This document shows positions 4,405 to 57,302 of a DNA stretch of 64,000 bases, in pieces. Numbering within the stretch: position 1 is the stretch's first letter; the number at the start of each line of letters is the position of its first letter. The stretch covers positions 2,110,093-2,174,092 of the forward strand of contig OZ199839.1 in the NCBI GenBank assembly GCA_964304625.1, written 5' to 3'. The translations under genes were made by a program, and so were the position numbers. The stretch comes from Kudoa neothunni (lineage: Eukaryota; Animalia; Cnidaria). Below the pieces are notes generated by a model, which searched no databases, had not been told where the DNA came from, and worked only from the letters and a program-made list of their open reading frames with translations.

Positions 4405-5607
4405 ATGTATTCTAAAACCAACTATATTACAGTATCAGATTTTGAGATTTTTTGTTCGGCACTTGATAAACTCAAAATAGAGGAATATTCTGAGGATAAC
4501 GCTATAAAGGTGAACTATTTCATTGCTGTTTAATTTAATATAAATATTATAGCTCGTATTTAATTCCACTAAAAATGAAGAAAGAGTTGAAATGCTATTG
4601 CGAGTTTTGTCTTCTCAAAGTCCATCTGAAGTATGTATTCCTTGTTCAGCTTCCCGTTTTCAAACTTTTTAGTTGAAAAGAAAGGCAAATTTAATGCTGA
4701 AAGATATATTTTCAAACCGACTTACTAAAAAAGATACATTTGATTCATTCATCAGCGATTCGTTAACCTGCGTTACTAACCTGATCATTGGTGAAACAGA
4801 TGAATCGCATCAAAATGATCTAGTATCAACAGGTTTCATTCTCATCGAGGTTATTGTTAAAGGTAAGAGAAATAAATGGGAATTTATATGGGAATTTGTG
4901 GCAAAACTACTCTCAACTGATCAACCAAACTTAATGGAATCGGTGCATAGATCGATGAAGTAGATTTTTGTTACCACGTATTGCGATTGTATGAGTGTAT
5001 AGAGAAAACCATAGTTTGTTTGGTAAAAAGAAAAAAAAATATTCAGTACAATATAGAAAGTTTTTGATGGCCTGTTTCAAAGAAGCCAGCCAACAACCTA
5101 AAGTACCTAATTCTTTAATACATATAAATAATACTTCAATGACCGTTTAAATTGGATATAATAAAAATTTCCTGTTTAATTTTTGTGGGAATCTCCATAT
5201 TTATCTTGGCTTAGGTTATATAATTTTCATTCGTTTAACACATTTAGTTAGCATTATTTGCAATGGATATGTGGCAATATTTACTCTGTTTTCAGAATTC
5301 TCTTTACTGCAACAAGACATTTGACAAATTGGTGCCTTTGTTAATGGATGCAATGGACGAATTAGTTCCAACGTTACATGGACATGATTTTATGAAACGT
5401 TTAAAGAATGTGCTATACCTGGATACCGTTGTGTTCCTAAATTGTTACAATTTACTTAGTCAAAGGATTATTACACTTTTATATACGACCGACGTTGAGG
5501 AGTTATTAGAATCTGAGCTTTTGAGTCTCCTTGATACATTAAAACCGTTATATGACATGGTTGTGTGCATTTCCACATATATGGTTACAACTGTAGTGGT
5601 TACTTAA
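4405..5607 (+). CDS. Tandem family copy A: 5-exon ~310 aa alpha-helical HEAT/importin-beta-N-terminus-like protein
   Basis: ATG 4405; GT-AG introns 4510-4552, 4631-4672, ~4960-5002 and ~5103-5247 join one open frame (MYSKTNY...LKRKANLMLK...KWEFIWEF...ENHSLFGK...LALFAMDMWQY...). Same intron positions in all four copies. Family assignment is by eye only. Confidence 0.8.
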
Positions 5608-9331: not shown

Positions 9332-10323
9332 TAACACTTCAGAATTAATTTAATTTCCTGTGCAGAAGATCTTATAAATAGTTGGAAAGTTGTATTAAGT
9401 ATGGAATAAAGAAATTAAAGGCCATTAAGATAGTCTTTTTCTGGGGTCCGGACGGACCCCATCGGAACACGCATGATTTTTTCCCGCACAGTACAAAGAG
9501 GGTAAATGAAAGCAAATTTTTAATATCTCACTTATTCTAGGAGATATTCCAATCCGTGCAAATAGCCACCGCCTTGATTTTATTAATGGTACGAACATTA
9601 GCTTTTATAATAGGGATTACTTACGAGTCAAAGCTCATTAGAAGGTTAAATAATATAAATTGGTTAATTATGGAAACCTAACTAAAATCGATTTTATTGA
9701 ATAAATCTAGATTATCTTTGGTACCTGCTTTGGCGTAACAAACAGATATGGTTAATCTTCAAATTTGTATCTTGTTTTGTGACATTTATTTGTCCGAAAA
9801 TACGCAATCATCGAATTATTTTTTTGCATAAGTATTCTAAGAGTTAATTGAGAATAAGATTGGAGGACTTGTTTCGTGCGTAGTTTCATTTTGTTTTATA
9901 AGCTCCTTGTCTCGTCTATTATGTTAGTATGAGCTCCAACGGATAAATTCTGTTCTATTCTGTGATTCGTCGTTATATGAACATATCCATATTCAATTAA
10001 AGACAATAGATTGTTCAGAAAGCTGGAATTCAAATCAGCTTCTGTGGTGTGGGCGGAATTTAAATGTGCGAAAATTTATTCGATTTTAATTTCAAAATTC
10101 GTATTCACCCAAAAAATAAAGATATCCAAACAAAAGTCTTTATCAACTGATATCTCTATTCTCGATAACATTTATTTTAATCACAATTATTATTTAATTA
10201 TATTAATCAGATAACGAATAATCTATTTAAATATTTGAACGTGATTTATTAACTTTTTCATTCCGATCGGAAAGATAACTTTCTCGTAATGATTAGTGAT
10301 AAATAATTATTTCAATTCGAGAA

Positions 10324-11465
10324 ATGGATTCTAATAATAACTATTCTATAACATCGGATTTTGATAATTTTTGTTCTGCACTAGAACAACTTCCTCAAGA
10401 AGATTATATTGGTGACAACTCTATAAAAGTGAACGGCATCTATATGAACTATGCTTAAACAAATAATTCAGATTCTTTTCAATTCTAAGACAAATGAGGA
10501 AAGCGTTGGACTACTGCTGAGTGTGTTGTGTTCGAAAAAATCTATGAAAGTATTTGTTTATTTACTTTGGACTCTCAATAATTTCAATATGTAGTTAAAA
10601 TTAATTTCGAATTCAATGCTAAAACATATTCATTCAGCTTGGCTCACTAAAAAAGATATTCCTGAAACATTTATCAACGAATCTAAATCATGTATTACAA
10701 ACCTAATAATTGTTGAAACAGATGAATCACATCGGAACGAGCTTATCTCAACAGGATTTCTTCTTGTTCAAATCATTGTTAAAGGGAGAAAAAATAAATG
10801 GGAAACCATATCTGAATTTGTGATAAAATTACTCTCAACTAACCAACCAAACTTAACGGAATTGGTGCGCAAATCACTGAAGTAAATTTTTTATAACTTG
10901 TTTTGTTTGTATGACTGCGTAGAAAAAACCATACTTTGTTTGGCAAAAAGAACAAAAAATATTCAGTGCAGTATGGAAAATTTTTGATGGCCTGTCTCAA
11001 TGAAGCCATTCGTCGGCCCAATGTACGTAATTGTTTTGGTCCTAATAAATAATTGCACATAAAATATGGATATAATTTAAATTTTCTTGTTGGCGAAAAT
11101 CTAAAAATAACCATAATTAATATCATGGATTAACTATGGTTTTATTTTTTTATCACTTTTAGGTGGCATTATTTGCAATGGATATGTGGCTTTATTTACT
11201 TTGTTGCCAGACTCATTTATATTGTAGTAAGAAATTCCACAAACTGATTCCTTCGTTAATGGATGCGACTGATCAAATGGTTACTTCGGCCGATGGATAT
11301 CATTTTATGAAATTCCTAAGATATTTGTATTATTTGGATGATACAGTTTTTCTAAAGCACAGTCTCGAGTTTAATAGAAGGATCTTTGCACGTATGTTTA
11401 CTGTTAAAATTGAAAAATCAATGGAATCTGAATTACGTCGTTTTCTCTATATGCTGATGTACTAG
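10324..11465 (+). CDS. Tandem family copy B (5 exons; shorter C-terminus)
   Basis: ATG 10324 (MDSNNNYSITSDFDNFCSALEQL...), introns at the same positions as copy A, last exon VALFAMDMWLYLLCC... ends at TAG 11465. Confidence 0.78.
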
Positions 11466-15314: not shown

Positions 15315-16507
15315 ATGGATATCGAAGAAAAATACAATTTACCAACCTATTTTGAAAGCGTTTGCTCAGAATTAGAGGCGTTAAACTTAGAGGACGAATC
15401 CTGGAAAGATGCGACCGGAGTATTCCATCATCTAATTGTATATGATTTAAATATGTTCATATAGTTAATATATAAATTACCAACAAACGAAGAAAGAGTA
15501 AGGCTTTTGCTTCGTGTAATGTCCACTCATAAATCACCCCGAGTATCACCTAATCGTTGATTAACATTACGCAAGTAATTTGTGTTTTAGTTGAGAAGGA
15601 CAGCTACTTCAATACTCAAAGTCATATTATCAGGGTTGCTTCATAGAAATGACACTTCGGATGCATTTATCAATGAATGCAAGTCCTGCGTTGCCAATCT
15701 AATTATCGTTGACCACGATGAAATCTATCAAAACGAACTTATTTCAATTGGTTTTACCCTTATTGAAGTTCTTATTAAAGGAAAGAAAGATAAATGGGAG
15801 GCTATTTCAGAATTTGTAATAAGATTACTATCAGCGGATCACCCAATAATAACGGAATTGATACATAAATCATTGAAGTACATTTTTTGTTTTTCAGTTT
15901 GACCTCATAAACTCCTAGAGAACATCATCATTTGTTCGGCAAAATAAAAACAAGTTATTCGTCGCAATATGGGAAATTTTTGATAGCATGTTTTAAAGAG
16001 GCGGCCTACAAACCCAAAGTAAAAAAAATTTGGTTCATCGATTACTTTAATAGAAACATCATAAAACAGTTTGATTCGACGTAGGAATTTTTAGATTATA
16101 TATCGACTAAAAATATTTTTTAAATATCTATTTCTGCAACATTTGTTTTCAACTTTATTTAGGTAGCATTATTTGGATTGAACATGTGGCAATATGTATT
16201 TTGCTGTCAAAAATCCTTATATTGCAAAAGAAAGTTTTTCAAAATGATACCTTATTTGACCGACGCACTGTATAAGGTGGCCATGACAGCCGAAGGATAT
16301 GAATTTGTGAAGCGTTTCAAATGCGCCTTTTACCTGAATAGGCGACTATTCCAATCAAATAGCAAAGATATTATCAGACAAATTGTTTCACTACTACATT
16401 ATCCTACTATCGATAAAATGGTTGAATCAGAGCTTCTTACTCTTATTTCTTTACTGAAAGATTTCAGAAATCATTTGCATTTGGTGAATGACAATACTTG
16501 GTTATGA
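15315..16507 (+). CDS. Tandem family copy C (5 exons)
   Basis: ATG 15315 (MDIEEKYNLPTYFESVCSEL...), LRRTATSILKVILSG exon, EHHHLFGK exon, VALFGLNMWQY exon; all junctions GT-AG and in frame. Confidence 0.8.
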
Positions 16508-20745: not shown

Positions 20746-22009
20746 ATGGATAATAATGAAAAATACGATATACCAACCTATTTTGAAAGTTTTTGCTCAG
20801 AATTAGAGGAATTAAACTTAGAGGACGAATCTTGGAAAAAAGCGAGTGGAGTATTCTATCACCTAGTTGTAAATGAGTTGAATATGGAAATATAGTTAAT
20901 ATACAAATTACCAACAAACGAAGAAAGAATAAGGCTCCTGTTTCGTGTACTGTCCTCTCATAAATCACCCCAAGTACCCAATTGTTGATTAGAGTTAAAC
21001 GAGTAATTTGTGTTATAGTTGAGAAGGACAGCCACTTCAATACTCAAGGTCATATTATCAGGACTGCTTTCTAGAAATGACACTTCGGATGAATTTATCA
21101 ATGAATGCAAATCTTGCATTGCCAATCTGATTATTGTCGATTATGATGTGACCTATCAAAATGAGCTCATTTCAATTGGTTTTATCCTTATTGGAATCCT
21201 TATTAAAGGAAAAAAAAATAAATGGGAGATTATTTCAGAATTTATAATAAGATTGCTATCGGCGGATCAACCAGTCATAACGGAATTAATACTTCAATCA
21301 TTAAAGTATATTTTTTATTTTTCAGTTTGACCTTATACATTCCTAGAGATCATCATCATTTGTTTGGTAAAGCTAAATATAGCTACTCGTCGCAGTACAG
21401 GAAATTTTTGGTGGCATGTTTTAAAGAGGCGGTCTATAAACCCAAAGTAAGCATATTTATCGAGTTAGGATTTATTTATTAGTGACATCACAATAGAGTT
21501 TGATTCACGTTAGGAATTTTTAAATCATATCTCGATTAAATATATCTTTTAAATACCTGTCTAAAAACGTTGTTCTCAACATTATTTAGGTGGCATTATT
21601 TGGAATGAACATGTGGCAATATATATTTTGCTGTCAAAAATCTTTATATTGCAAAAGGAAATTTTCAAAAATCATACCCCATCTATTGGATGCATTGGAT
21701 GAAGTGGCCCCTACGACCGAAGGGTATGAGTTTGTGAAACGTTTCAGATGTGCATTTTATTTGAACGAATCACTGTTCGAATTTTGCAGCAAAGATGTTA
21801 TTCAGAGGATTGTTGAACTAATGTATAAGGCAAACATTGACAAATCAACGGAATCTGAGCTCTTTGGTCTTCTCTCCTTGTTAAGAGACTTGAGGGATAA
21901 ATTATTGGTATTAAACGACGGTATTCCCTGGTATGATTGGGTTAGAAAAAAACAGAAAAAGACAAAAAAGTCTTCAAAATCTGATAACAGCGATTTCAAA
22001 CTTGGATAA
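20746..22009 (+). CDS. Tandem family copy D (5 exons; Lys-rich C-terminal tail)
   Basis: ATG 20746 (MDNNEKYDIPTYFESFCSEL...); most similar to copy C, including ~300 bp upstream; ends ...WYDWVRKKQKKTKKSSKSDNSDFKLG. Confidence 0.82.
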
Positions 22010-31686: not shown

Positions 31687-32899
31687 TCAAGCTCCTCCCG
31701 AACTATTCTCTTCTTGCTGAGAAGTAGGAGGAGTTGTAGATGTGCCTTTAGATTTCTTTCTTATCTGGTTTATAACTGTGGTAAATCTTCCGTGAATATC
31801 GTCTTGGTATTTTCGGTAGAGCAGCGCCACCATCGAAATCAACACCACTAGTATTAATAAACCACCAATACCCATCATAACTGATCTTGGATTTTTCGCT
31901 AAAGCCGAAGTTTCCAGAGTCTAAAAACTTTGAATAAGGAAAAAAATTATGATTTACATCCTTAAGCAATTCTTTTTGAATTTCTATTGTGTTATTGGCT
32001 GGTCCACCTAATTCTGGAACCAACTTAGCTTACAATACAATTTTCAAGCATTTTACCAGGTACCGCTTCATAGTAACAACTGTAGAGTAGAATATTGTAA
32101 TCTCTGTCGGGATTGGGTCCAAAAGGAACTTCTCCGGAAATTTTATCTCGATTACCCTCATCGTTATCGTCAAAAAACAAAAACTCCAAAATGGCCTACA
32201 GTTAATCACATGTTAGAAAATTATTCAGAAAGGAAAATAATTTCTACAAAATTACTTTCATTCCCTTGACACTTTGACAAGTTCTATTCTTGTATGGGAA
32301 TAAATAGAAAGGTGTGTCAGTGGGAAGTTCCATCGGAAGGTCTACACTACCCGAATCAGTGCAGCAGAAGTAAATCAAGGTAGTGTTTGCGGTGTATTCA
32401 CCATCTGGAGTACTTCCTTCGTGACTGTTAGGAAGATCTTGTTGCGATTTCTCATCATCCCAAAAAATACTTCCTGATTCGAAATTGGCGGGACACTCTC
32501 CTTTTTTGTAGATACAATATTTACCGAAAGGCCATTGTATCGTGGTGCTGGAACTGTTAGAGGATGGTTGAGTGGTATTGTCGGCTAACTTCATACAAAA
32601 TGTTTGTTCAATACCTCTGTTATTGAATACACCACTCATATGATAACTAGAATTTGACCTTCTATTTATGTTTTGATCATCCTCAGTGTTATGATAAACA
32701 GATCCGCTCTGCCAACCAGATGGACAACCTGTTGTTGGTTCAGGTAGACCATATGTGCCAGTAGGCCATTTCACATTGGAATCTTCTGTCTTTGTTGCCC
32801 TCAATATTAAACCTAGAACAGATTTTTCTCATATACATACCGATACAAAACAACAACAAAAATACAAAAAGTGATTAAATAAAAATATCTTTTAATCAT
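31687..32899 (-). CDS. Apextrin-like (ApeC domain) type-I membrane protein
   Basis: Hydrophobic signal-peptide exon from ATG 32899 (needs one-base correction near 32868); WPTGTYGLP...GCP.GW..G, WPFGKYCIYKKG.CP.NF..G.IFWDDE, FCC, LPT..PFYL, C..V.GM, EFLFFDD, CYY motifs; TM segment MGIGGLLILVVLISMVALLY then RK and a short tail. Confidence 0.88.
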
Positions 32900-37550: not shown

Positions 37551-40500
37551 TTAAAAAATAATTCCAATATATATTTTTACAATTGTTTTCCGATAGTAGC
37601 AATGTTCGAAGCCACACAAACATCCAAAGGGTTTTTTATTCCAAAAGGTTTCACCATAACTCATTCTAAATGTGGTATAGATCCAACAAATGAATTTAGT
37701 AACGTCATGAATAATCAAGAAATCAAATTAGCAAGGAAATATTTTCAAAGTAAAAGACTTACGACAGTGATTCTCCTTTTTTGATTCTTCTTTTGTTGAA
37801 AAAACAAATATGAGGCAGTCGCATATCCTAGTTGGAATTTAAAAGCGCTTACTAACTAACAGTATACATGATGATCGAAAAAACACTCGAAAAGATTCAA
37901 GATTGGGATTGCAATGATGATTAATGAATCGGGACACATTACCCATATTGATAAGAATCGACACAGAAAAGATCCCCTTCTTCGGCGGTGTCTATATCGT
38001 GAAGGTAGTCGTCGTTTTCTTTTTGGTTGGCTTCATTGTTGGAGCAGATTTTTCCTACATACTCACAGATGAAAGTGCCTACCGGCACATCTTGGTCCAC
38101 GGTCAAGGAATAACCTATCTCAAAATAATTAACCATGTCATTTAATAATAATTATTATAATAAGAAAGATGGACAATATATGTATTATTACCGACATTCG
38201 GAGTTTTTGATGAGTTTTAACGATACTTGTATGCCGAATTGAACAACTCTTGATGAGCAACTCAAGCTGCATGTACACTTTTCATTACATTCATAAATTA
38301 GTGGTCTATCGATTATTTTGATATCGTTGATTTTGACAAGTCTCTATCAACAACAGCAAAATCAACATGATTTATTTGTGATTACGGCAGCATATAATAT
38401 TTAATTTAATTTCTAACAATTCCTACCTTATTTTCGTACCAAATTGTTTTTTGATAAGAGAGGTTTCGGCATGAGCAAAAATCACTCAAAGCACAATCCC
38501 CAACGCAGTTACAACACTGTAATGTGTACATTTAAACATTGTCACAATAGAACTTCGCAAAAACACCACTTACAGACATATCATTTCTTATTTTGATGTA
38601 GTTGGGGAAGATATTTTTCTTCACATACACATAATGTGGTGGTGGCAGATCATCGAGATAATTCACAAGTGGAATAGCTTTATCTTCAATTCCAAAAGTG
38701 ATATCTCTATTAGGTATGTAATTTTATTTCACCTAATCAAATAAAACTGTACACATACGTTGTTGTTAGAAGTGGTTGGGGTTTGTTAGCTCGGTAGGTT
38801 TCGATGAGATCTCTTAGGATGAGTTTGCATGTTTCCGACTTAGAAATCTACGTTCATATAAATAATTAAGTGAGACGAATCAAACATCAAAAACAAAATG
38901 GGAAATGCCTCTATTGCATTACTCAATCACTTTACCGATTTTATTTTAGAAACAACAACAAAAATTTTAAAAAAATTAAATAAGGTAGCTCATTATTTTT
39001 AATTCCTTATGTCTTATTTAGTTTAACAATTGTCAAAACTTATCTGCCCGTAGAATATTAAAAAGTATCAGACAAAATGCAACTCCCTCGATTAAAAGTA
39101 ACATTCTAGAAGACGAATGAGCAGAAATATCGATTTTGCATTAGGGCACGACAGCATACATTGATAGGGAAAAGATTGTTATTGTTAGGTATGGATGGAT
39201 CCGAGCCTATCTGTAAAAGAAACTTGACCATTTTCATGTTATTTTTGCTGACTGCAATAAAGCTATATAAATTTGTGTAATTAATGAAATATTACTTTGC
39301 TACAGGTTTAATAAAAAATCAAATCTTACAGAGGAGTTTCTCCTAATTTGTTTTTTATGATTTGGATAGCATTCATAGTTTGACAGCAGAGTCACGGCAT
39401 CAAACATATTGTTTAATACGGCTAAATGGAGCGCGTTGTTGCCGTCCTATCAAGAATAAGTAAATAGTTAGAGATTAATGTTGTAAACAAGCAAAAAAAT
39501 TACTGCATCACGAATACTTAAATCAGCGCCAAAATCAAGAAGAACTTTGGCAACAGGAAGACTTTGGTTGATAAACAATGAACCACATCACAGGGGAATA
39601 TCGTTGTACGTTGTCTAGGATATTGAAATCAACCTTCAACCGAAGGAGGATGTGCAAAAATTTCAGGTTGATTATATATCACAGCGTACGTAATAAGATT
39701 CATATTGAAAATATTCTATTTTGTGATGTAAGAATAATAAGCTAGTTGAATTAACCTTGTGATGAATATTTGAGCCCATTAAAATGAGAGCAATAAAATT
39801 GTGCAATTTTCCATATTTAACACAGAAAAACTAGATCACATTTGGAACAAATATCAAGTTATAAGTTCAGTCGTTATGAATAATGGAAATGTTACCGTTG
39901 GAAGATTGAGGTCGTCATCAAGCAAATCCACAAAACCATTTGACTTGTTAAGGCCAATTAATTTAACGACATAGCATGTTAATCAACTTACAAGATAAAG
40001 CAGTCCAAACAAATTGGATACAGTGCCATATTGTGCCATATAATGTAGAATAGATTTGCCATTCATTAGATTAAACAAAGTATATATGATAGTTGTGCAC
40101 TACAGCAATAATACACATTAAAATGAGATACAAAAATGAATTGAATAGAGATGTTTTTTATGATCGTATTAAATCATTCACATAACTACAACATACAGAG
40201 CAAGGTTAACACCGCCGAAATCTTGTTAGCCTTTACACAGTCGTACGATATCAACACGATCAAAATGGGGCAAATTGATAAGGTCCATCTTAATGTGTTG
40301 ATATAATTGAGATGTTAATTACATCTGCTGCTTACTTTCAACAATTTTTTGGACCTAAATAAAAAGATAAATTTAATAAAAATATCGCCAAAATATTCTC
40401 ACATTGTACTATCGTTTTCGTCGTTTGGACAGCTACAATACAAATAATAATATACTTTTTTAAGTGAGATGAATATTTTAAAACCAATATAATATTAAAA

Positions 40501-41321: not shown

Positions 41322-42196
41322 TTTTGAGGATTAGTTAGATCGAGCCATTGTCGACAGTCACTGGCTACGTTATTTAAGGGATAAATTAATGAGTTGATGT
41401 GTAAATTCTAAGAGCAGAGTTTTTATTGGAAAATAGTTGATAAATTCTGCTAAACGACAACTCACGGAACATAAAAAACCACTTTTTAAATTAAAAATAA
41501 ATATTTTACAAAATTATTTTTCTTGACAATGAGAAAATATCCTGTTTTAAGCTTTTAATATTTACTCAGTGAAATAAAGTTTTATAGTAAATATTAAATT
41601 TTGAATAATTAATTTTATTTTGTCCATTTTTGTTTTGTATATTGAATGTATATCATTGTTTGGATAGGACATAAAATAATTCATATCTCGTTCGATCAAA
41701 CATTGAGTCTGTGTCGGCTTCTCAGTAAAAGTGTTTGGTTCAGTGTGGTACCGCTTAAACCTCGAATTAATTCTCTAATTAACTGTACGCTGTATCCCCT
41801 TCAAGTAAGAATGTAAAAATGGGATACAAATGTGCACCACACTTTATTTTATAAAATTGTCCAAAATAAAAGTCAGTATTTACTAATAAAATGTGAGAAG
41901 AATTTATCGTACAAATTTCGAATAAATGGCCAATTTTTTAAGGTTATTTTCTGAATGTGAATGAGCGATAATATATATTGCCACATTATCTCATTGGAAT
42001 ATGATAGTATTTATAAGTCTATTTCTGCGTTTTTTAATTAAATAAATAAATAATTTAACTCCCAATAATGAATTCATTTTAATTAGAACAACTTAATATA
42101 ACATTGTGAAGAAAACCATATGATCGAAAATAGTGATTATTTCATAAAACAATTATGACACGTTTTTTAACCCTCTGAGTCACACGAGAATTTACA

Positions 42197-43272
42197 CCTT
42201 CCAAGTAAAAATAGAGTAGAAATCTACCCAGGTTTTCTCGACTAAAACTATGCCAAATTAAACTTTATTTAATTTGGCATTGTTTTAATACATTCTGCCG
42301 ATTAGATTTTAAGTAAATCAAGGTATACATATATATACTAAATATAATGAGCCCGCATTGCGTGATATATTAGGGTTTTTCACTGCCCGCTCTTGTCTTA
42401 TCAACAGTAAATCTCTTGTTTTTTCCTTAAAATATTCTTTTAATGTAAAAGAATCGTTGAAGGTTTATTGGGCACAAATAAATGTAATATTTACACTAAA
42501 ACATAACAAACATAAAGAAAAAACGGTGTTATTTCTTGAAAAATGACCACAAAACATGCCAACAATGTTTCTTATAACAAAATGCTACGCAAACATCACA
42601 TTTATGTACAGTTTTAATGTCGTACACTTGTTGATTGAATAATTCCCCCCTTGTTTCGATTATCAACGTAATATTCTGTTTTTTGAATATTAAAACACCA
42701 AAACGATTTTAAAAGGTGTTTTAGTTGGTGTTCGAGTAGATAGCGGGGCCGCAGTCTCCCATAATGTGCCATTCTTGTCAATAAGAAAATCGACTGGCAG
42801 ATTTATACTAACATCGCATTTATCTAAAGATTCTTCGTCAATAGACCGTATTAAGAGTCTGATGAGTCAAATCTGAGAAACTTTCACTGTATTCGCAAGA
42901 ACATATTGCACACAAAACGAGAGGAAAGCATTCGCACAGGGGGCTTAATAATAGTGTTTATTGATTTACTCAAAATCTAATCGATAGAATATATTAAAAC
43001 TATGAAAAATTTAATAACTTTTTATTTTAAATTGGTTTAATCCATAAAAATCTGGGGGAGATTTCTACCCCATTTTTACTTGGAAGGTAAGATACTGCTG
43101 AAGTAACTTTTTTTTATATCTAAATGATACACTTTTTTATTCCTAATATTTATATTATAAAAACGGTCACAAGATTATACTGAATTTGGATCATTTATCT
43201 TTAATTTATTGGGTAAAAAATGACTTTCTAACATCACGTGGGATAGATTTCTACCTCATTTTACTTGGACGG
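42197..43272. mobile_element. piggyBac-like non-autonomous element
   Basis: Inverted ends CCTTCCAAGTAAAAATAGAGTAGAAATCTACCC and GATAGATTTCTACCTCATTTTACTTGGACGG+TTAA; the GTAGA(A/T)(A/T)TCTACCCC motif recurs at ~19900-20104, ~36550, ~43060 and ~43540-43750. Confidence 0.6.
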
Positions 43273-45604: not shown

Positions 45605-47811
45605 TCAAATCCCTCTCCCTCCAAAAAATAAAGCCTGTAACTGATACATTAAACGCCATAAAAACACCAATTTTAAAACCATATCAAGAGAATTATACTT
45701 ATTTTGCAGAATTTTGGAATAGTGTCGATTTTGAATCAATGAATTTAAGCCTTTTATAAACCCTTTCCCATAGCCCATTAATTGAATTTTGGATTCACAT
45801 ATTGATTTCTTATATTTCTTGAAATAGTTCACCAAAATAATTTTGTATATTTTGGGGTCCGTGAGAGGGTTTTGCACTGTTGTATGTTCATTGTACGTTT
45901 GCAATTATTTTGGGCAAATGATAGGAAATCATACCTACAATTGGTGTATACCAATTTTGTCGCTACAAATAGTTCAAAGTCCTTATATTTTTCTAGCGGA
46001 TATAAGGATTTTGTGAGCTCATCCGGTAGAGCTATAGTTTGTGCTTTTGCATGTCTTATCATATTGAAAAGTTCCGACAGCGATTCATCATTAAATAATG
46101 GATCCAGTAGACGGCAAGATTCATTATACGACTTTTTTTCAAATATTTTATTAAAATGAATAATTTTTATACGGCTTAATAATGAGCATTCAACCTCATT
46201 GAATTTTGGAATATTGTTGACGTTAATAATAATTTTCGACTGGATATTTTCAATTCTAATATTGTTATCATAGCTTCTTTTGCATGGCAATACTCCACTT
46301 TCTAATGTATATTATTTATATGGATATTCAATTATAAAATGTTCACCTGAGACGACTTTAATTAGGCGGCTATCAAATTTGTCAAACGGCGGGTCCATTA
46401 CACAGCATAACTTTTTCTCCCTAATATAAAATTTTAATAGTAATATCGTATAATAATACCATAAATTCTCATGTTGTTGAAATGAATTAGAGAGGATTTT
46501 TGTCTCGGAGAAAAACCCTCTGGGTATCTCACCAAAAAAATCCCCCCAAAAATGTCTTAATAATTTGAGAAAAGTGGATTTTCCATTCATACCACAGCCA
46601 TAAAAGAAAAGTATATATTTGTTTATTTTTTTTCCGTACAACGCTTCGTTTAAAAATTCCATTACGTCATGAATGTGGTCATCGCTCAATATGGAAGACA
46701 AATATTCTCGTATACTTGTGCTAGTTGTATTTGGTATGTAGTTAAATGGCAGGTGCCTTGTTACATAGTCTTCTTTTTTAATTTCCCCGAATTGATTTTC
46801 GTTAATGTTGTATATAAGATTTTTAAAAGCTATATTATCCATTGAACGAAGAAAAAAATCCGCCGGTGGGAGATATTCATTCTTTATCAACTTTTGGGAC
46901 ATCTCGCTAAGCCTTGATTTTTTAATGAAATTCTTTACGTCAGAAATTAAATTTTTAATCAATTTTTTCTCATAAATACTGACATTTTTTAAGCTCAGGC
47001 AGCCGCTCATGAAATCAATTAACTCTTAAAAAATTGAATACATTGGTTCTTCTCAATACTGATTGCTTACCTGTTCCTTCGTCAAAGATTCTACTGCATA
47101 TTTTATTCCAAACTTCCTTAGTGTCTATTAGATGCCAAATTTTTGTTTTTGATTCAAATACATACCACTTTTCGGACTCTTTGGTGATTTGAAATGCATC
47201 AATTTGGATTTTTTTCAAAATAAGGTTTATAAATCTATTATCAAGTAATTACTTAGGCCGAAGAATTAGGAGTTACCCATAATGTGAAGGATCGTTAATG
47301 AAGTATAATAAACATTTTTCATCAGTATCAGGAAACTTTTCCATGTACGCGCTAAAAACTTCCAGTGGGCTTGGGGTAGGTGGAGACGACAACGCAGTTT
47401 GATACAACTCAGAATCGGTATTTTCGCGAGTTGCAAATAAGGATTCATTGATAACCTGACCTGCAGAATGGTCATGCTTAGGTAATGGAGAGCTTTCTTT
47501 ATACGGAAGTGCAAGAAACGGGCTTGGTTGAGATGAAAGCGAAATCATATTGTTAGCATACCCCGTCTGTCTCTTCAAGATAACAATAATTTAAACAATT
47601 TCATATGATCGGTTACTCGCTGGATCGTTATCAATATATTAAAACATTTTTCGTTAACTGGGAATAAAGAATCCGCACTGCAGGCTGGTTGTTTCTCACT
47701 CCTGGGTACACTATTTGGGTCGCCATTAGAATTACTCGCTAGGCGGATTGTGACACTAGAATCGTCTACAATGTTTATAACGATATCCGACTTATCATTC
47801 GGATTATCCAT
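45605..47811 (-). CDS. Intron-containing D5-like (poxvirus D5 / phage P4-type) superfamily 3 helicase without a recognisable primase domain
   Basis: D5_N-like WYVF...KIW and IAFKN.IYNI...I.KEDYVT..LP.NY; Walker A FFYGCGMNGKSTF; Walker B-like KKLCCVMDPP; motif C IIINVNNIP; Arg-finger region LLSRIKIIHF. GT-AG introns 47573-47616, 47235-47276, 47025-47070, 46421-46459 and 46302-46346 give an open frame from ATG 47811 to stop 45829 (~588 aa). A frameshift near 45905 may hide a longer C-terminus to 45605. Confidence 0.85.
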
Positions 47812-49087
47812 AATGTTGGCAATGGCGTCTGAAATATTATTTGATCCGCTCACTTCTCACTGACAAAGCCCAATCCAACTTACCCTTAGTACCAACAGAG
47901 AACGATAAAACCGAAAGCAGAGAATGCGTCCCATCTAGAGCTTAGAGCGTGTTTGTTAATTTTTGACGGACTACATTGTTTCATTTAGGATACTCTATAT
48001 AAACAGCGATAGCTGTCACGTTTATTCCTCTAATACTGAATTAATTCCTTGATTCGATTACCATTCGAATTCATAAAAATAATTGAATAAATGTATATAA
48101 TCCAAAAAACAAAGAATCAATATTTAAACAAAGGTACCTCTCTCGAATGTAAATGTGGTCCGCTATTTTTATCCCCTTAGTAGTCGCTTTGAATATATAG
48201 CTATATTTTTGATACTTAAATCAGAAATAAATACATTTAACCGAAATTTAACGAAAAAAAAATTTATTTTCATTGATCTTAAATCGAAAAATACAAGGTA
48301 ATCTTTTTTATTCATTCATTTTGAATATATTAAATTTTTTCATGTATTTGAATTTAATCGCAATATAGTTAGTAAATTTTCATCTAATTTCAATTAATCA
48401 ATATTTATGATTTAATACTTTTACATTATGGTTCCCGTTTTTCTTTGAATTATTTTGAAATTGTAATTTAATATTTAGCAAAAAAGGTCACTTTATTAAA
48501 TGATACGTTCAATAATAATTATAGGAATATTTTATAGATCGAAAAAAATCTATTTCTGATATTTGAATAAATGTTATTTACTTCTATTTATCAAAAAAAT
48601 TTTTGTTGCAATTAAAATTGAATGACAAATAGCATAACTATTACACCTACAGTTTATCAACAGTGCGGCTCTTTGAGTTGTTAATACTCAAAGACGGTTC
48701 CGGGATAAATATTTTTAATAATTCTGTACTAGACTTAAAATGTGTTCAAAACAAATTTTTCAATTATTTTTCGTGAATTTAATCTACTCACACATAACAT
48801 GTCTTATTACCAATAGGATTTGTATATGCTTCAAAAGTAAGTTTAAAGGGACTTACCGACTTAAAGTTGGATTCTCAAACTTCATCCCATTTATTAGGAA
48901 GTAATCAAAACTGGGATGAAATATTTTATTGTGTAAAAATTTTTTACTCGTTACTTTTATGTAAAAAAGAGTAGAAAATAACGGACTTGTAGAAGATTTG
49001 AAATGCGATTAAAATTTATTTTTCAATACGTGCGCATACCAATATATTCAACATTTTCGTCATTCGAACATACGAATGTTTGGATAT

Positions 49088-51443
49088 CGGGGTTAAGACC
49101 GGTTTGTTTTTTTAACCGTCGGTTCGATTTAGGTCTGGTTTGTGGTAAAACCGAAATCGATTCTAAAAATCAATTTTTTTAATCAGTATAAATTAGCTTC
49201 TATCATTAATTGATGCTGTATTTTAAACAAATAAACGCGTATTTAAATAATAAAGGGGCAGAACATTTTTTGAGAGTGGACGTGTTTCAGCTGCGAATAA
49301 TTTTTTTGTTCGTTATTACGGTAATGGTAGCTGCTATTTGGAGCTATTTTGTTAAGCTTGCTAATGAAAAAGCAAAATGTAACAAATACGATGCAATGCT
49401 TACGTGCAAAAAAGGTTCGACTGATACATTGCATGCACATGCTAAATTACATGCGATCGATTCAAAAAATAAGTTGTTGCAATCGCTGATATTTTTCTAT
49501 TGAAATTAAGAAGCATACAAGTACGATCCATTATTTAAAGTTATGCGAGGAAAAAGTCTTCTTGGGATTTTAACCTGGAGAGTGATATTTCCAAATTAGT
49601 CGCGATTGACAACATTCCTATTTCCAAAATTGCAAAAAGTACCACCATAAGACGCTTGTTAAAAAAAATTATAATAAAGAGATCCCAGTATATTATGATG
49701 AAATTTTCGGTTCTTGCGTAAAAGTAGAAGCATCTATGGTGAGCAAGATAAATAATTTTTCCGGTGCCAATTCAAGACCTGCACTCTGTTCTGATGAGTG
49801 GACATCAAGTTCGAAAAAGCGATTTCTTAATATTCAAGCGTATGTCGAGGACAAAAAAATTTCACTCGGGGTTGTTAGAGTCATCGAAAGGTGTACAATG
49901 TACACGGTACAGGCGTAGAATTGACATCATTAATCAAAAACCAGCCTTCGAAATTTGTCGTTAAGTCCTTATTTATGTGCACCGATGGAGCATGGCAAAA
50001 TGCACTTTTGAGTTGGGCTTCCAGCAGATTAAGTGCATGCTTCATGGAATAACTTTAGGTAATTGAGTTATTAATTGACAAACCTACATTAACGTATAGC
50101 TGTAAAAGACACAATGTGAGAAGCTCGTAGCCAGAAGCCAAAAAATATCGAAACTATAACGGACGACCAAGAATTTGTCTTCGTACCAAGTTTCTTAGAT
50201 ATTGTTATATCGGGTGAGGTCAATTGTTAGTCACTTCAAAATCTAGATCTGGATTGGCCTCCGACACATTGAGAAAATCATGTGAACGAAAAGACATTGA
50301 ATACCTATCACCGAATATCGATTGTGTGACACGATGGTCAAGTTGTTACGATATGTTAGTTAAATTTGTGAAAATGTTTGAGGTTATCGAAGGCGCTTAC
50401 ATGATTTTGGAAAGGATTTACTGACCGATAAAGATGAAATTATTTGGCCAATGTAATTATCTATAAAGATATTGTAAAAATGACTGAATTTTAAGGAATT
50501 AACATCATGCCTGGAAATTGTGCATCGCACCGCTCTCAAACTTTCAGAGTCACAAATAAATCTTGCACAATGTTACTTCATACTAACCAACACAGTTGAA
50601 GATCTCTCGCTTATTGACGGAACCTTTTCAGAAAATTTAAAAATGAAATTTATCGAGCGCTGCTTTGAACGACGCATTATTTTGTCTGATATATTAATGT
50701 TTTTAAGCTTCGATTCAAACATTCGTGAAAAGAGTTTACTCTACGGAAGACCGCCAAATTTTGAACTACAAGAAATTAATTTGAATGAACCGAATGATCA
50801 AATCCCCACCTATGAACCTTCCGAAGCTGATATGGATTTAGACGATTTGATAAATTACGTGACCAGCCCAAAAAAGTCAAAATATTATTCGGATTCCAAC
50901 GAAATTACCGATTTTGTTAATCAAGATGTGATGTCAGATCGTTTAGAAATGGTTCGTAAAACTCATTCTAACATAAGGACCTACGAGTATTGACCCAGAA
51001 AGATGTGTCTCCCTATGCAACCGCGTTATTTTCCCGTTGACAACAAAACTGAGCGACTCGAAACTTGAAACCATTGTGTTCATTTATGAAAATAGAAATA
51101 ACTAAATTGAAATTTGAACTATAGAATTTTTCATAGTGCGTTTGAAAGAATTTGATCGTAAAATATTTGTAATAGTTTTTAAAGGTAATAAAAAACAATT
51201 CTTATCGATAAAATTAATTAAAACAATAAAAGCTAATATATATAATTTAATTCTATTGTAAAATAATTCGAAATTTGGGTTTAAAGAATATTCTTAAACA
51301 AAGAATAACTAAAATATGATTTCATTCATCACATTTTTACATTTTTTTGCGTTCACAAAAGTTAACATTGATACTTGAAAAAATAATTTATAAAACCGAA
51401 AACCGTTTTAGAAATAACAGAAACCGAACCGTCTTAACCCCTC
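49088..51443 (+). mobile_element. hAT (Ac-like) DNA transposon, degraded
   Basis: TIRs GGGGTTAAGAC(C)GGTT / AACCGTCTTAACCCC; flanks TTGGATAT / TTCGATAT form a near-perfect 8-bp TSD; BED finger IWSYF..AKC..GST..LH.H, SDEWTS, TDGA, CMLHG, DCVTRWSSCYDML. Confidence 0.9.
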
Positions 51444-54400
51444 TTTCGATATTGGTCGATTCATAAATAATTCTTTGTTTTTGCCAAAATAAAATTCATT
51501 TGTATCCATGGGATCAAAAAAATATTCAGGCTCATTGAAACCATATACATTAAGGTTTTCAATATTGCACAATTAATCGGTACCTGGACTTTGCTGGCCA
51601 TTGCCGAATTTCGCGCACGCGCCACAAGAATAAATTTCTAATTTTTGGACGAATAAAATCATCTACTTTGTTTGTATTATTTAATTAAGAATGTGAAGGA
51701 CATCGATCTAACAATATAAGAACTTTTAATATTTTTCTCGCAAACTTGTGATCAAGATTTTTTTAAAATATCATGATAGTGGAAGACATCCACTCATTTT
51801 TTTGATCGTAATATTTAATAGATAAATTATTAATTACTTTAAAACAGTGGGTCTCTCAAAATTAAACAATGATACCGTGGAAAAATTTTTTCTTGCAAAT
51901 TAAGCAGTTTATAACAAGGTGACAGGTTATTGATTGTTTCGTTGCATTTTAATTAAATTAAATTAAATTTTACCCATTTTTTAAGGCATATGCTCGTTGG
52001 GCACACTGTTCCTAGAAAAGATTTTTTTTTAAAGCGGTTTAATATGTTTTCTTTCTCATAAATACTTATTACCTCAAAAAAATCTGTTTACCTATTCGTA
52101 ACCAATATTTAGGGCATGTAACTTTCGATTTTATCAGGATGGTTCGGCGTTTATTTTTTCCTATTGTTTCAGAAAAAACGTCTTAATAAGAATATGCGGG
52201 AAAAGATGTGATTTGGAAAATTATATTGAGGATTGATTTAATTTATAAATTATTTAAAATGAATTTATTTACAAATACCGCAAGTTAAAGTTACCTACAA
52301 AACCAAACCATATGTAGAAACATATTGTGTTATTAAACATCGTTAGATGATAGAATCGTTAAAGCATGTCTCACCTGACCCCTTTTGTTATTTAGATATC
52401 ATAAAAATCCAAAAATAACGATTTATCATGTTTCAGCTGTAGTGTATGATGGATTACCACTTAAAATAAGAGATAATTGCACAAGACTAGAAGTTTTTCC
52501 TAGAAATGTTGCCTTACCGCATGTTCACTTTCTAATGTCAAAAATTTTGTTGATAAGCATATACTTATATTGTTTAAACAAAATTCTAGCAACGTCAACT
52601 TCTTCGACAATTTTCATGAATTTTTAAACATACCACTGTTATTAATCGTAATAAAGATTTTTCCAGAGATTAATCGTGTTCTTTCAGGAGAGAGAATACT
52701 TATTTGAATGAAAAATCTCGATGGTATTATAATTTTATAAAGATCGTGAAATTAAATATAATTATAATCTGTGTAATGTTAGTTTGTGTTTTTTGCGTCA
52801 TAGAGATGTTTGTGTAGATCTATGTATTAATCTTCCTTATACGAAAAATAAACGTCGCAAATTGCATGACCTACCAATATTATCAGGAACGATCCGTGCT
52901 TCTCTACGGAAAGGGACTTTTTAAAACAAAGGCGACTCTTGAAATTTTTGAGCCGTCCTTAGCGTTTACTGAAGCTGGTGATTTTTAAGATTATCAGAAA
53001 AATGTTTTGTCTTTTCGGTGGTCAAAAATTCTAGAATATTTTCCTTTTTGTGATTCCATGACATTAACTGGTCGTATAATTCAATTTAAATTTGAACATA
53101 TTTTGCGTTTGTAATCTTTTTACAGGTAGAAGCAACATTGGAATTCTTTATATCAGATTTATTAGACAAAATTCTAGTCAGAGAAGAATAACCTATTTTA
53201 GTTTGAATAAAACTCACAATAAGAGAATACATGGTATTCTATGGCGCCTTAGAGACATTTACGAGAATTTCAGATTGATTTAATTAAAACATATATAACA
53301 TAATTTCAATTTTTAATCAATAGTTTCTTTCATCCCTCACTATACGGAACGTTCAAATGTGTAATTTAGTGCAGCGGTTACCAATGTTTTTAGCTGGTGG
53401 GCCAAATTTTGGATTCTCATAAGCCTCGAGAATCGGATTGAAAGTTTTTATTCGAAAAGCAATTACAGAAATGAAACGAAAACAATATAAATATCAGAAA
53501 ATAATGAATTTTTATTTGAGTGTGAAAAGGAAACTGATTCTTGTGGAAACATTTAGTATATTTCAATTATAGGGTGCCAACGAGATTATGCACCATCCAT
53601 AATCTATTGTATAACTCAAAAAATCGCAACGTTGGTTATATTTATGGTTGTAATTAAGAATTACAATTTTTTTCAAGTATAAAATTCATAGTTTATTTAT
53701 TCGATTATACTCAAATTATGTAGATGCTACTAAGGTGTTCATTTGTCGAGTTTAGAAATTCTTTATTATTTCTTTATTAACCACTATTTATATATAAGAA
53801 CATAATTTTGTAGAATACTGTATATGATTCTCAAAAGTATCTAAGGAATGATTATTATTGCCCATCATTTTAACGTTATAATATCAAATCAACTAAACTC
53901 AGCCAGATTAAAAATTATAGTCAATCAGCTTAATTTATAAGTTTAAATTATTAAAGGCGCAGGAATAAAATAAACTTTGCAACATGTATTTTATCGATTC
54001 GTACGTTTTACATTCAGAATCATGCTATATTAGTGTGTCGATTTTTCTTTTGTTTCAATTTGGATAAAGTAAAAACGTTAACGGAATTAAATGAGGATTT
54101 TTAATTAACACTCGTCTACTAAGGTAATGTACTGATAATCTTCAAGTAGGTCAACACAACTTCGCGTGCACAAGCGCATTCGAATATAGGGGCAGGGCGC
54201 CCAATGAGACTATCCGAAAAAACCCAAGGTCGACAAGAAAACATAATACTATTATTAAAATAAGAATTTTTATTTTACAGGGTTTTTTTAATTATTATCG
54301 TCAATTGAATCGATTTCATCATCTTCACAACCCTCAGTTAAGAAGTTTGATGTATTTTTCAAGCGCTCAAGGTATCATTGGCTCACAACATCGTTGCTCA

Positions 54401-55281
54401 CATCATGTATCAGTTTATTTGTTGGATGCGACGTCAAACACGTATTATAATTTTCTTTGGTCGACTGCTTTGCGATAAGTGTACATTTTACAATTACAAT
54501 TACAGACTTTAATGAGTTTGTTTAGTTTTTAATGTGTTCATTAATGAATTAATTAGTTCAACATATGCGGTAGATGGAATTTCTGTCCTTAGATATTGAT
54601 CAAGTCAATATTTAAAATCTACTTTTAACCAATCTTGATTGGAGCACATATTATTCCCCGCTCTTTTTGAGCTCCGTTTAAATTTTCACGCATACTTTAA
54701 AATAATATACGTCAATAACTCCAAAATATGTTATTAAAAAAGCTAGAAAATTTTAAGACAGTGTTGAAATATCCAAATAAAATCACAGAATAACAAGAAC
54801 AATTGATTAAATAATAATTATTCAAAGGTCGGGAAACAGCGCGTCACCGACGGCCATAATATCTGTTTAAATTTTCAAATAATTTTATTCCCCTCCATTA
54901 CTATAACAATCAATATGATTATTATTCCTAATTATAAAACTTATTATTTATAAACTGATCTCAACGAACTCAACAATCTACGAGTTTTGTAAATAAACAA
55001 AAAACCCCAAGATTTAGCTTAGAGTGAAAACCCATGGTTTGGACCCCCTATGTTAGGGGGGATACCGCGGGCCATACTATGGTGACTCTAATTTAGTGGA
55101 TTAATCGGATTAGAATTTGAAATAACTATTGCCCAATAGCAGGACCTTGAATTTTACCAAAATTTCCTCAAACAAAGGTTATTTTATATTTTTGGGTAAA
55201 ATGTTAATCTAGAGGAGTATATGCATCGCAAATTTTACAATATGGAGTATAGAAATAAGAAAAAAGAAGTGGCTATTGGCA

Positions 55282-55498
55282 TAGTAAATAATATTTAGGT
55301 GGCGCTAGTTTTGACTATATTTAAGTATTTCTGGCCCATCACTCCGCTCTTAGGGGTCAGGAATAATTAAATATAGTCGATTCTAAAAAATTACATCTAT
55401 AACTAGCTAGTAAGTTGGAGTTTGTGAGATTAAAAATTCTCAATTCACATGTATACATGCCATTTAGGATTAAATTGTACTGTGCCAATAACTTCTGC
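55282..55498 (-). repeat. ~220-bp dispersed repeat, copy 3
   Basis: Reverse-complement similarity to 13433-13650. Confidence 0.75.
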
Positions 55499-55848
55499 AA
55501 TAAAAAATTGTTTCCTACCCCATACTGAACCTCGCAATATCGAGACCTTTCTGTAATTAAGATAAATAATAATCATTTTAATTAATTATTAATTTTTCAA
55601 TAACACATAATTTCATCAAGCTTATTTGGGCGTCATATTGATACAAAAATAAGTTATCTCTCCATTTTTAAATTAATTTCGCCAGCCTTAAGATAATGTA
55701 GTTACAACTTAAAATGTCATTCTAACGAATATCTAACATATACAATCGAATATAAATCACAAACTTATATCATATACACTCGGTCTGTTTCATTACTAAT
55801 ATGGGTTATATTACTACTTACTACTTTAGTTGGAACCTGTGGTCATGT

Positions 55849-55880
55849 TGCGCATGCGCCAAAATTTAGTAGTGATTGGT
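55849..55880 (+). promoter_or_regulatory. Possible NRF1-type site (TGCGCATGCGC) and inverted CCAAT box upstream of RPL4
   Basis: GC-rich palindrome matching the NRF1/ewg consensus ~300 bp before the RPL4 ATG in an AT-rich background; motif match only. Confidence 0.3.
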
Positions 55881-56158
55881 TATTGTTAAATCAGCCGATC
55901 CAAAATAATTTTCGATGACCATTACTCGTAAAATTGAAAAACTTAGTTTATTTGCGAGAGTAATCACACTCTTGTCAAAAACTACAATAATTGGCGCCAA
56001 GATGAATTTTTCTCTATACAAATAATAAGTAGAAATTATAATTACAAGTTATTTAGTCCATAGCAGATGAACTTAACATAATGGAAGTGTCAATGGATAA
56101 TGATGTAATATGACGAAAGTAATTCTCGGCGATCTTCGTCGCGAAGCACGCTGCAGAG

Positions 56159-57302
56159 ATGGTATGTCGCATTGTGTATTTGTTATATGACTAATTCGCT
56201 GAAATAGGCTACCTACAATGGATCATATGTACATAATATAGTGGAAAAAGATGGTAAGTTGATTCTGGAGAAAAAGTCTCCGATCACTCTACCCAAAGTG
56301 TTCTCATCTCCTATTCGAAGTGATTTGGTGAATTTTATCCACACTCAACTTCGTTGCAACGCTCGTCAGGCTCATGGTGTAAGCAAAAATGCAGGTGTGC
56401 AAGTCAGTGCATTGTCTTGGGGAACTGGTCGTGCAGTTTCAAGAATTCCAAGAGTGAAGGGTGGCGGTACCCATAGGTCTGGTCAAGCTGCCTACGGTAA
56501 CATGTGTAGGGGTGGACACACATTCAATCCTCTGGTAACATATCGTAAATGGCACCGAAAAGTCAATCTAAAACAGAAGCGTTTTGCCATTGCTTCAGCT
56601 TTGGCCGCTTCTGCCTGTCCCTCGCTTGTTATGGCTCGTGGTCACTCGATTGAGAATGTTCCACAATTCCCCCTGATTGTCGATGACAAGTCGGTCGGAT
56701 TGGGTGACATGTCTAAAACCAAATCTGCTGTTTCCGCATTGAAAGCTATCGGTGCTTATGATGATATTATTCGTTGCAAGGAGAGCAAGCGTATTCGTCC
56801 CGGAAAAGGAAAAATGAGAAACAGACGTTATCTCATGAAGAAAGGTCCTCTCATGATTCACACTCAAGACTCTGACAGTGCTTTTGTTCGTGCGTTGAGA
56901 AATATTCCTGGATTGGAGTTGATGCATGTGCGCAGATTGAACCTGTTGAAATTGGCCCCCGGTGGTCACCTTGGCAGGTTCATCATTTGGACTGAAGATG
57001 CCGTGGAAGAACTACGAAAGATGTACTATTTCAGTGGTGAGAAATCTGACGGAAAAGCCTTCTTTATCCTCCCCAGAAAACAAATGAGTGGTGATATTTC
57101 CAGTCTGATCAATTCGGACGCCATCCAACGAGTTCTTCGTCCCAAGATTCATAAAGTTGGCAAGTCGGCTAGAAAGATCAATCCCTTCACCAACGATCAT
57201 GTTATGCATTTCTTGAATCCTTTCGCTCGTGTTCTCAAAAGAAGAGCCATTCTTGCTAGCAGCAAAACTAAGCCGACACAAGTTCAACAAGTTGCCATGT
57301 GA
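56159..57302 (+). CDS. RPL4: 60S ribosomal protein L4 (uL4)
   Basis: ATG 56159-56161, 46-nt intron 56162-56207 (GTATGT..CTAAT..TAG), then SWGTGRAVSRIPRV.GGGTHRSGQ, GKGKMRNRRY, LLKLAPGGHLGRF. Confidence 0.98.

Follow-up and report, generated by a model that had tools for sequence, protein, structure and literature searches.

Helicases of the SF3/D5 family form rings and translocate with 3'-5' polarity. Most of the viral genes that animals have co-opted code for envelope proteins, capsids or transposases, and a helicase of this kind is an unusual enzyme on an animal chromosome. The closest described systems are the D5 proteins of Nucleocytoviricota (vaccinia D5, MPXV E5, ASFV C962R, and the mimivirus and klosneuvirus D5 of BFVD), the P4-family proteins of phages and plasmids (TIGR01613, SaPI5 7OLA), and the D5-like SF3 proteins of Polintons, adintoviruses, PLVs and virophages, which belong to the same family, are in some cases shorter, and are integrated in eukaryotic genomes (PMC11296320, PMC8502044, PMC4405056). 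A 'primase' from Vairimorpha necatrix (P0014, XP_065330172.1) lies on the chromosome of a eukaryotic parasite, and genes of viral origin kept in a host genome have been described elsewhere, such as the planthopper toti-like element (PMC10636211; general PMC12344493).

We analysed a window of 64,000 nucleotides from Kudoa neothunni, in which one gene of the minus strand is predicted to code for a D5-type helicase. Like the Nucleocytoviricota proteins it has a D5_N domain, an SF3 core, the catalytic motifs and the fold, and the helical segment ahead of D5_N aligns with P0043 and P0151; unlike them it has a low-complexity N-terminus in place of any AEP primase or PriCT match, carries five putative spliceosomal-type introns, lies among host genes and reaches at most ~30-34% identity. 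Polinton and PLV elements differ from this locus, which has single-copy-like depth and lacks terminal repeats as well as any capsid, packaging ATPase, integrase or PolB gene nearby. With the P4 family the helicase shares TIGR01613 and PHROG primase matches, but the TIGR01613 score is below the cut-off and in the tree the helicase falls outside the phage-like groups, which is moderately supported. P0014 is likewise a primase-less D5 protein, of ~620 aa and with a low-complexity N-terminus, but it has a degenerate Walker B and a degenerate motif C, whereas both are intact in the helicase. P0014 is possibly a pseudo-ATPase and, since it is not the sister of the helicase in the tree, probably represents a separate acquisition.

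The reading that we favour, and to which we give somewhat better than even weight, is that an old viral helicase was adopted as a catalytically active, primase-less host gene acting on host DNA. The gene is probably domesticated.

Gene structure and predicted splicing

After removal of five GT..AG segments, one stop-free frame of 588 codons runs on the minus strand from the ATG at 47811 to the stop at 45829. The five putative introns (44, 42, 46, 39 and 45 nt; A+T 67-87%) all have intact donors and acceptors. Exon 1 (47617..47811; minus strand, as for all features of the gene) starts from the provisional ATG and codes for an acidic low-complexity N-terminus with no domain match. It is followed by putative intron 1 (47573..47616, 44 nt, GT..AG, phase 0), whose removal is required for the open frame. 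Exon 2 (47277..47572) contains a Ser/Pro-rich stretch leading into the start of the D5-like region, and putative intron 2 (47235..47276, 42 nt, phase 2) contains in-frame stops. The N-terminal part of the D5 profile matches in exon 3 (47071..47234), and the open frame again requires removal of putative intron 3 (47025..47070, 46 nt, phase 1, donor GTAAGC). Exon 4 (46460..47024) codes for the helical segment typical of eukaryotic-virus-type D5, then D5_N and the Walker A motif at 46599-46573. Directly before Walker B lies putative intron 4 (46421..46459, 39 nt, phase 2), which is in frame, stop-free and 87% A+T. Exon 5 (46347..46420) codes for Walker B, with its acidic residue at 46395-46393, and for the motif B' Lys; putative intron 5 (46302..46346, 45 nt, phase 1) contains an in-frame stop and is situated inside motif B'. 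Exon 6 as assembled (45829..46301) carries the motif C Asn (46218-46216), the Arg finger (46173-46171) and then the C-terminal tail.

A preliminary description of this locus had joined the ORF fragments by introns of 44, 42, 46 and 45 nt. We found all four, each GT..AG and each needed for the open frame, as an early stop appears if any one of them is kept; the 39-nt segment is in frame and stop-free. The 39-nt and 45-nt segments had also been proposed to remove inserts from the SF3 core, and the profile scores agree with this. With a profile of 130 D5 matches, the five-intron model scored 221 bits, compared to 199 with intron 4 kept and 198 with intron 5 kept, a gain of ~23 bits each with this broad profile, and the match fell into two pieces when both were kept. 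With a profile of the closest clade (22 virus-type D5), removal of intron 4 or intron 5 gained 11 or 20 bits, respectively. After removal of both, the alignment was gapless at either junction against P0043, P0151 and P0014, three virus-type D5 helicases.

Deletion scans were carried out around the two core introns. For intron 4, a single GT..AG deletion was present among 1680 in-frame deletions, with rank 32 by D5-profile score, and the top-scoring length was 42 nt, not 39. For intron 5, two of the 1710 in-frame deletions were GT..AG (ranks 45 and 561) and the top-scoring length was 45 nt. By these scans the two predicted core introns exceed chance. Intron 4 is the least certain of the five because AlphaFold accepts its read-through as a helix (pLDDT ~78), compared to a pLDDT of 35-49 for the read-through of intron 5; it is nevertheless likely to be real. 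The anatomy of the gene is thus well supported at the sequence level, the splicing being predicted, and the spliced product would have ~600-650 aa. Four RNA or presumed-RNA runs (X10, X12, X14 and X16) gave no reads over the gene, nor did the last three give any over RPL4; none of the runs contained the organism.

A sixth intron of 51 nt (46933-46983) had been considered possible. The broad D5 profile gained 3 bits from its removal, but the closest-clade profile (22 sequences) scored 195 bits with the segment and 177 without it. P0043 and P0151 align straight through the segment, which we read as coding. The intron sizes had been said to match those of neighbouring host genes; the ranges do overlap, but the helicase introns (39-46 nt) are at the short end of the host range of 41-83 nt. 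The GC3 of the helicase gene is 0.34 and that of host genes 0.28-0.41.

The two ends of the gene

The start codon is not settled because the gene may have more introns at its 5' end. Upstream ATGs can be linked to the main frame by about 50 splice models, which add <55 aa. The strongest local splice signals, GTAAGT..TTTCAG, delimit a probable extra 5' intron of 55 nt (47829..47883), which would belong to a 5' UTR or to a short upstream coding exon, and the reading of splice sites gives a possible further 5' intron at 47935..47974. Between them, the ATG at 47934 of a 51-nt upstream segment (47884..47934) opens an Arg-rich, acid-free, presequence-like 17-mer. This ATG lies in the main frame with one stop between the peptide and the helicase frame, and the segment reaches the main frame via weaker splice sites only. 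At least four Arg residues together with no acidic residue were found in 5 of the 816 ATG-started 17-mers of the window, and a looser presequence test was passed by 30 of them.

At the 3' end, near 45.9 kb, the assembled frame departs from the pattern of the family. Contigs of the short-read runs X1 and X3 have single-base indels relative to the window at this break, and the X1 contig has another near 45.78 kb. In all, a 4-kb part of the window differs from short-read contigs by six one-base indels. Because the X1 and X3 contigs differ there and the SET-domain and ApeC genes of the window slip similarly, the break is probably an assembly error. The gene limit of 45605 given in the preliminary description included a sixth ORF piece (45605..45904) that no listed intron joins; it is probably a part of the C-terminal tail shifted by assembly indels. 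A 58-nt intron at 45934-45877 was discarded by inspection, as it has the wrong phase for the downstream ORF piece. A winged-helix (Pox_D5) profile gave 2-3 bits on the best frame of the tail and up to 5.8 bits on shuffled sequences.

Family assignment, catalytic motifs and fold

The predicted protein is a D5/P4-type SF3 helicase with no primase match; a virus-type D5 helicase had been proposed in the preliminary description from the letters of the sequence. D5_N (PF08706) was detected ahead of the ATPase with 31.6 bits for a Pfam cut-off of 22.4. TIGR01613 matched with an E-value of 1.2e-18, yet with 67 bits for a curated cut-off of 108.7, the query being the intron read-through, and PHROG DNA primase families matched as well. 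A HMMER search of 1.84 billion representatives gave 1307 matches at E<=0.001, of which 5 were at <=1e-10 and none at <=1e-30, with 25-35% identity among the 150 matches listed. The AlphaFold model had a pLDDT of 74.7 and its top Foldseek matches were poxvirus D5/E5 and the SaPI5 primase-helicase (E ~1e-13 to 1e-16), followed by mimivirus, klosneuvirus, virophage and phage D5 proteins; an alignment of D5 matches was used for the model, so that this fold check is partly dependent on the profile searches. The best matches could have been to a vertically inherited P-loop family, and this was not so: G-alpha matches were weak (E 0.01) and restricted to Walker A, and the profile and fold matches are D5. 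An Endotoxin_N match (E 0.056) was considered noise.

The retention of Walker A, of the motif C Asn and of the Arg finger was verified against the homologue columns. The Walker A Lys is intact, as in 156 of 157 homologues, and so is the Walker B Asp, at a position occupied by Asp or Glu in 151/154 (Asp in 65). The motif B' Lys (the same in 150/153), the motif C Asn (144/148) and the Arg finger (146/148) are intact as well. Some positions of motif B' are unusual, and its Gly column corresponds to the junction codon, shown as X. In the first glycine codon of Walker A the X1 contig differs from the window and the X4 contig agrees with it, and the X2 contig covering this part has two differences.

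The first ~140 residues are of low complexity. A Pfam search of the exon 1-3 ORFs (E<=1) detected no AEP/Prim-Pol or Toprim primase domain, the only match being DUF7796 (E 0.058). An Rfam search of the window gave no match.

Relatives and phylogeny

The top match was P0004, a protein of 219 aa from a 2070-nt Logan contig, 27% identical to the helicase and sharing with it the signature M[DE]P..FDSxLIKV. The two are reciprocal best matches within the hit set, P0004 giving 68.6 bits with the helicase and 43.9 with the next sequence; the hit set had been picked with the window's own query sequence. P0004 was the sister of the helicase with a support of 99/97 in a maximum-likelihood tree of 48 of the 158 rows (the top 45 by score and the named ones) and of 0.947 in a FastTree of all 158 rows, on end branches that are long (0.78 and 1.29), so that long-branch attraction is possible. 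The alignment with the P0004 ORF ends right after LIKVLTG, at the position of intron 5, and the ORF itself ends 12 residues later. This break-off fits a read-through into a phase-1 GT intron, from which we infer that intron 5 is common to P0004 and the helicase. P0004 is a divergent candidate orthologue.

In the maximum-likelihood tree, the helicase and P0004 together were sister (95/83) to a clade with the giant-virus-type primase-domain sequences P0051 and P0041 and two eukaryote-encoded proteins. The deeper placement was without support in the 158-row FastTree. The pair leans towards the eukaryotic-virus-type D5, on branches that are long.

Other searches brought few relatives. With exon 4 as query, a word-based search of longer proteins gave 2706 candidates, none of them related, and an alignment search with P0001 and P0004 gave 8 matches out of 7480, with P0004 alone close. 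No relative was present in the viral contigs (255 pattern matches) or the metagenome contigs (598), and phage records gave generic primase matches only, at 24-30% identity. Among the aligned sequences, P0151 corresponds to Paulinella micropora g16269, a eukaryotic gene model ending in a D5-type helicase and placed near P0125 (100/100).

Copy number and genomic surroundings

Contig depth was used as a rough measure of copy number, which sees only copies at least 85% alike. In run X2, at 85% likeness, the depth was 5.9-11.3 over 45.4-49.0 kb and 6.4-9.9 over RPL4, with 25-372 over the repeats between the two. The stretch was present in four runs of one sample at a contig depth of ~3-10, within 830-920 million letters of contigs in the runs mapped, which suits a minor organism living in a host. 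No pile-up of diverged contigs was seen on the helicase gene in the short-read runs, and a profile search detected no second D5 copy within the window. The many near-identical copies with shared termini that would mark a mobile element were not seen, the depth being like that of RPL4, and the helicase gene is apparently single-copy.

No terminal or inverted repeats flank the gene within 40-56 kb, where the only element with such ends is an unrelated one at 42196-43088; this is MITE-like, with inverted ends of ~130 nt and a possible aspartic-protease relic, the motif being recognized by eye. The reported lack of capsid, PolB, integrase and packaging ATPase genes nearby was reproduced: none of the 43 flanking ORF pieces in 40-54.5 kb matched any Pfam family (E<=0.001), hence no capsid, packaging ATPase, protease, integrase or PolB, in a scan by ORF pieces that can miss short spliced exons. 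High-copy repeats extend over 49000-55900, directly upstream of the helicase gene, and include a decayed hAT-like transposase identified by eye.

The window has ~30% GC and is eukaryotic. It contains RPL4, COX11, a SET-domain gene with an ankyrin-like piece, an apextrin (ApeC) gene and four tandem orphan genes, together with remains of hAT-like, Tigger, piggyBac, Merlin and gypsy transposons. Host introns that passed an open-frame check measure 53, 41, 49 and 79 nt in COX11 and 57 and 83 nt in the SET-domain gene, and have weak GTa..AG signals; a 77-nt segment of the SET-domain gene (frame lost) and segments of 40 and 97 nt (motif basis only) were left out of this list. Intron medians are 49 and 61 nt in two Kudoa genomes, with a GC of 26-30% (PMC12239612), and 22-27 nt in myxobolids (PMC13644364). 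The animal-type genes, the GC of ~30%, the introns of 39-83 nt and the weak GTa..AG signals fit non-myxobolid myxozoans (PMC12239612, PMC13644364).

Proposed origin and role

In the reading that we favour, the gene would be an ancient acquisition whose source was a large DNA virus or a Polinton-like element, and its five spliceosomal introns were likely gained in the host. The product would be an ATP-driven DNA-unwinding ring working in the host's own DNA metabolism, and by analogy with the family it may form a hexamer that translocates 3'-to-5'. Because a low-complexity N-terminus has replaced the primase, it would unwind DNA for host enzymes and would not itself start replication. The default role would be in nuclear replication, recombination or repair, the compartment being putative. 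A long retention under selection is suggested by the invariant residues, which are kept though the best identity is only ~30%. That a viral acquisition turned into a host gene, as the preliminary description supposed, agrees with the D5 identity, the introns in the core, the RPL4-like depth and the host surroundings. D5 genes were said to be normally intronless, and this needs a qualifier: spliceosomal introns are reported from mirusviruses, pandoraviruses and some chloroviruses, and also from endogenous viral elements in decay (PMC12768974), so that introns alone are no proof of domestication.

The main alternative is that a Polinton-like virus or large DNA transposon with introns of its own left the gene behind or lost a copy here, the introns and intact motifs then reflecting selection in the element. 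The lean of the tree to eukaryotic-virus-type D5 (95/83) would agree with such a source, PLVs and Polintons carry D5-like helicases (PMC11296320, PMC8502044, PMC4405056), and the neighbourhood is rich in transposon remains. We consider this unlikely, however, as the depth equals that of RPL4 with no pile of diverged contigs on the gene, terminal repeats are absent and so is any viral gene in the ORF scan of 40-54.5 kb, and the protein has none of the primase or polymerase fusions described in PMC11296320 as thought necessary for such elements. A domesticated or viral gene that died recently, its 3' frame break being real, would account for the break near 45.9 kb and for the X1 variant in the Walker A glycine codon, but at the break two short-read runs disagree with the window, host genes slip likewise, and the 588 codons have no stop and all donors and acceptors are intact; we regard it as the least probable of the readings considered here. 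Hardly more probable is an antiviral decoy, which would bind viral origins or, when large DNA viruses enter, poison their helicase rings. P0014, with its degenerate motifs on a V. necatrix chromosome, indicates that parasites do retain altered copies, and endogenous PLVs and virophages are described as protecting protists; a poison would not need the catalytic residues, however, and all of them are kept, so that the virus-interference role suggested earlier fits poorly. Mixed rings with a viral D5 are also unlikely, because the identity to any sampled viral D5 is ~30%.

The protein might also be imported into mitochondria and serve there as replicative helicase beside or instead of Twinkle, which in animals is likewise a helicase-only protein (PMC3610141). 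COX11 in the window points to aerobic mitochondria, the Arg-rich peptide at ATG 47934 is presequence-like and in frame, though one stop apart, and myxozoans are described as having lost many mitochondrial proteins and as retargeting others (10.1101/2024.02.09.579586). Nevertheless, the strongest splice signals leave this peptide out of frame, ~50 alternative 5' models exist and 30/816 window ATG peptides pass a similar test, and the N-terminus is acidic if translation starts at ATG 47811; mitochondrial import is thus improbable in our view. A wider proposal, that a giant-virus-type SF3 helicase is an ancient, conserved and spliced part of the replication machinery in one lineage of parasitic animals, possibly mitochondrial in place of Twinkle, is doubtful too, if slightly less so than mitochondrial import.

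If the favoured reading of an adopted host helicase is true, a catalytically intact viral replication enzyme would hold a cellular job within a reduced, gene-shedding parasite, which would be an unusual case and relevant to the way in which these parasites replicate nuclear or mitochondrial DNA. It would mark a parasite-specific enzyme and be the trace of an old infection, by a Polinton-like element or a large DNA virus; our searches found no such infection described for this group. Our search of the openly accessible literature gave no report of a co-opted D5-type animal helicase or of D5 in Myxozoa. The word 'helicase' is absent from the main text of three myxozoan genome papers, and a supplement file of PMC12239612 contains no primase or D5 term. 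The gene may already have been annotated automatically. ORF-based screens for endogenous viral genes would miss such cases: the authors of one large screen state that they did not take introns into account (10.1101/2025.04.19.649669), and the word-based search with the unspliced exon gave no relative.

Other features of the window

RPL4 (56208-57302, plus strand) is intronless and highly diverged among otherwise intron-rich genes, its nearest relatives being 73-74% identical. One-base frame slips occur in conserved host genes at 37560-38900 (minus strand) and elsewhere; the assembly is thus error-prone, and any other 'frameshift' reported from this genome should be checked. The SET-domain gene also contains a candidate 26-nt GT..AG intron (38758-38733, minus strand), far shorter than its neighbours. 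The ApeC gene (31690-32828, minus strand; 195 bits) is followed by a probable transmembrane segment, contains frame slips and is unexpected in a reduced parasite. Finally, an intron-containing orphan family, whose tested pieces had no match reaching the Pfam cut-off, is present on the plus strand in four tandem copies (4378-5607, 10303-11465, 15315-16507 and 20746-22009), which are parted by transposon remains.
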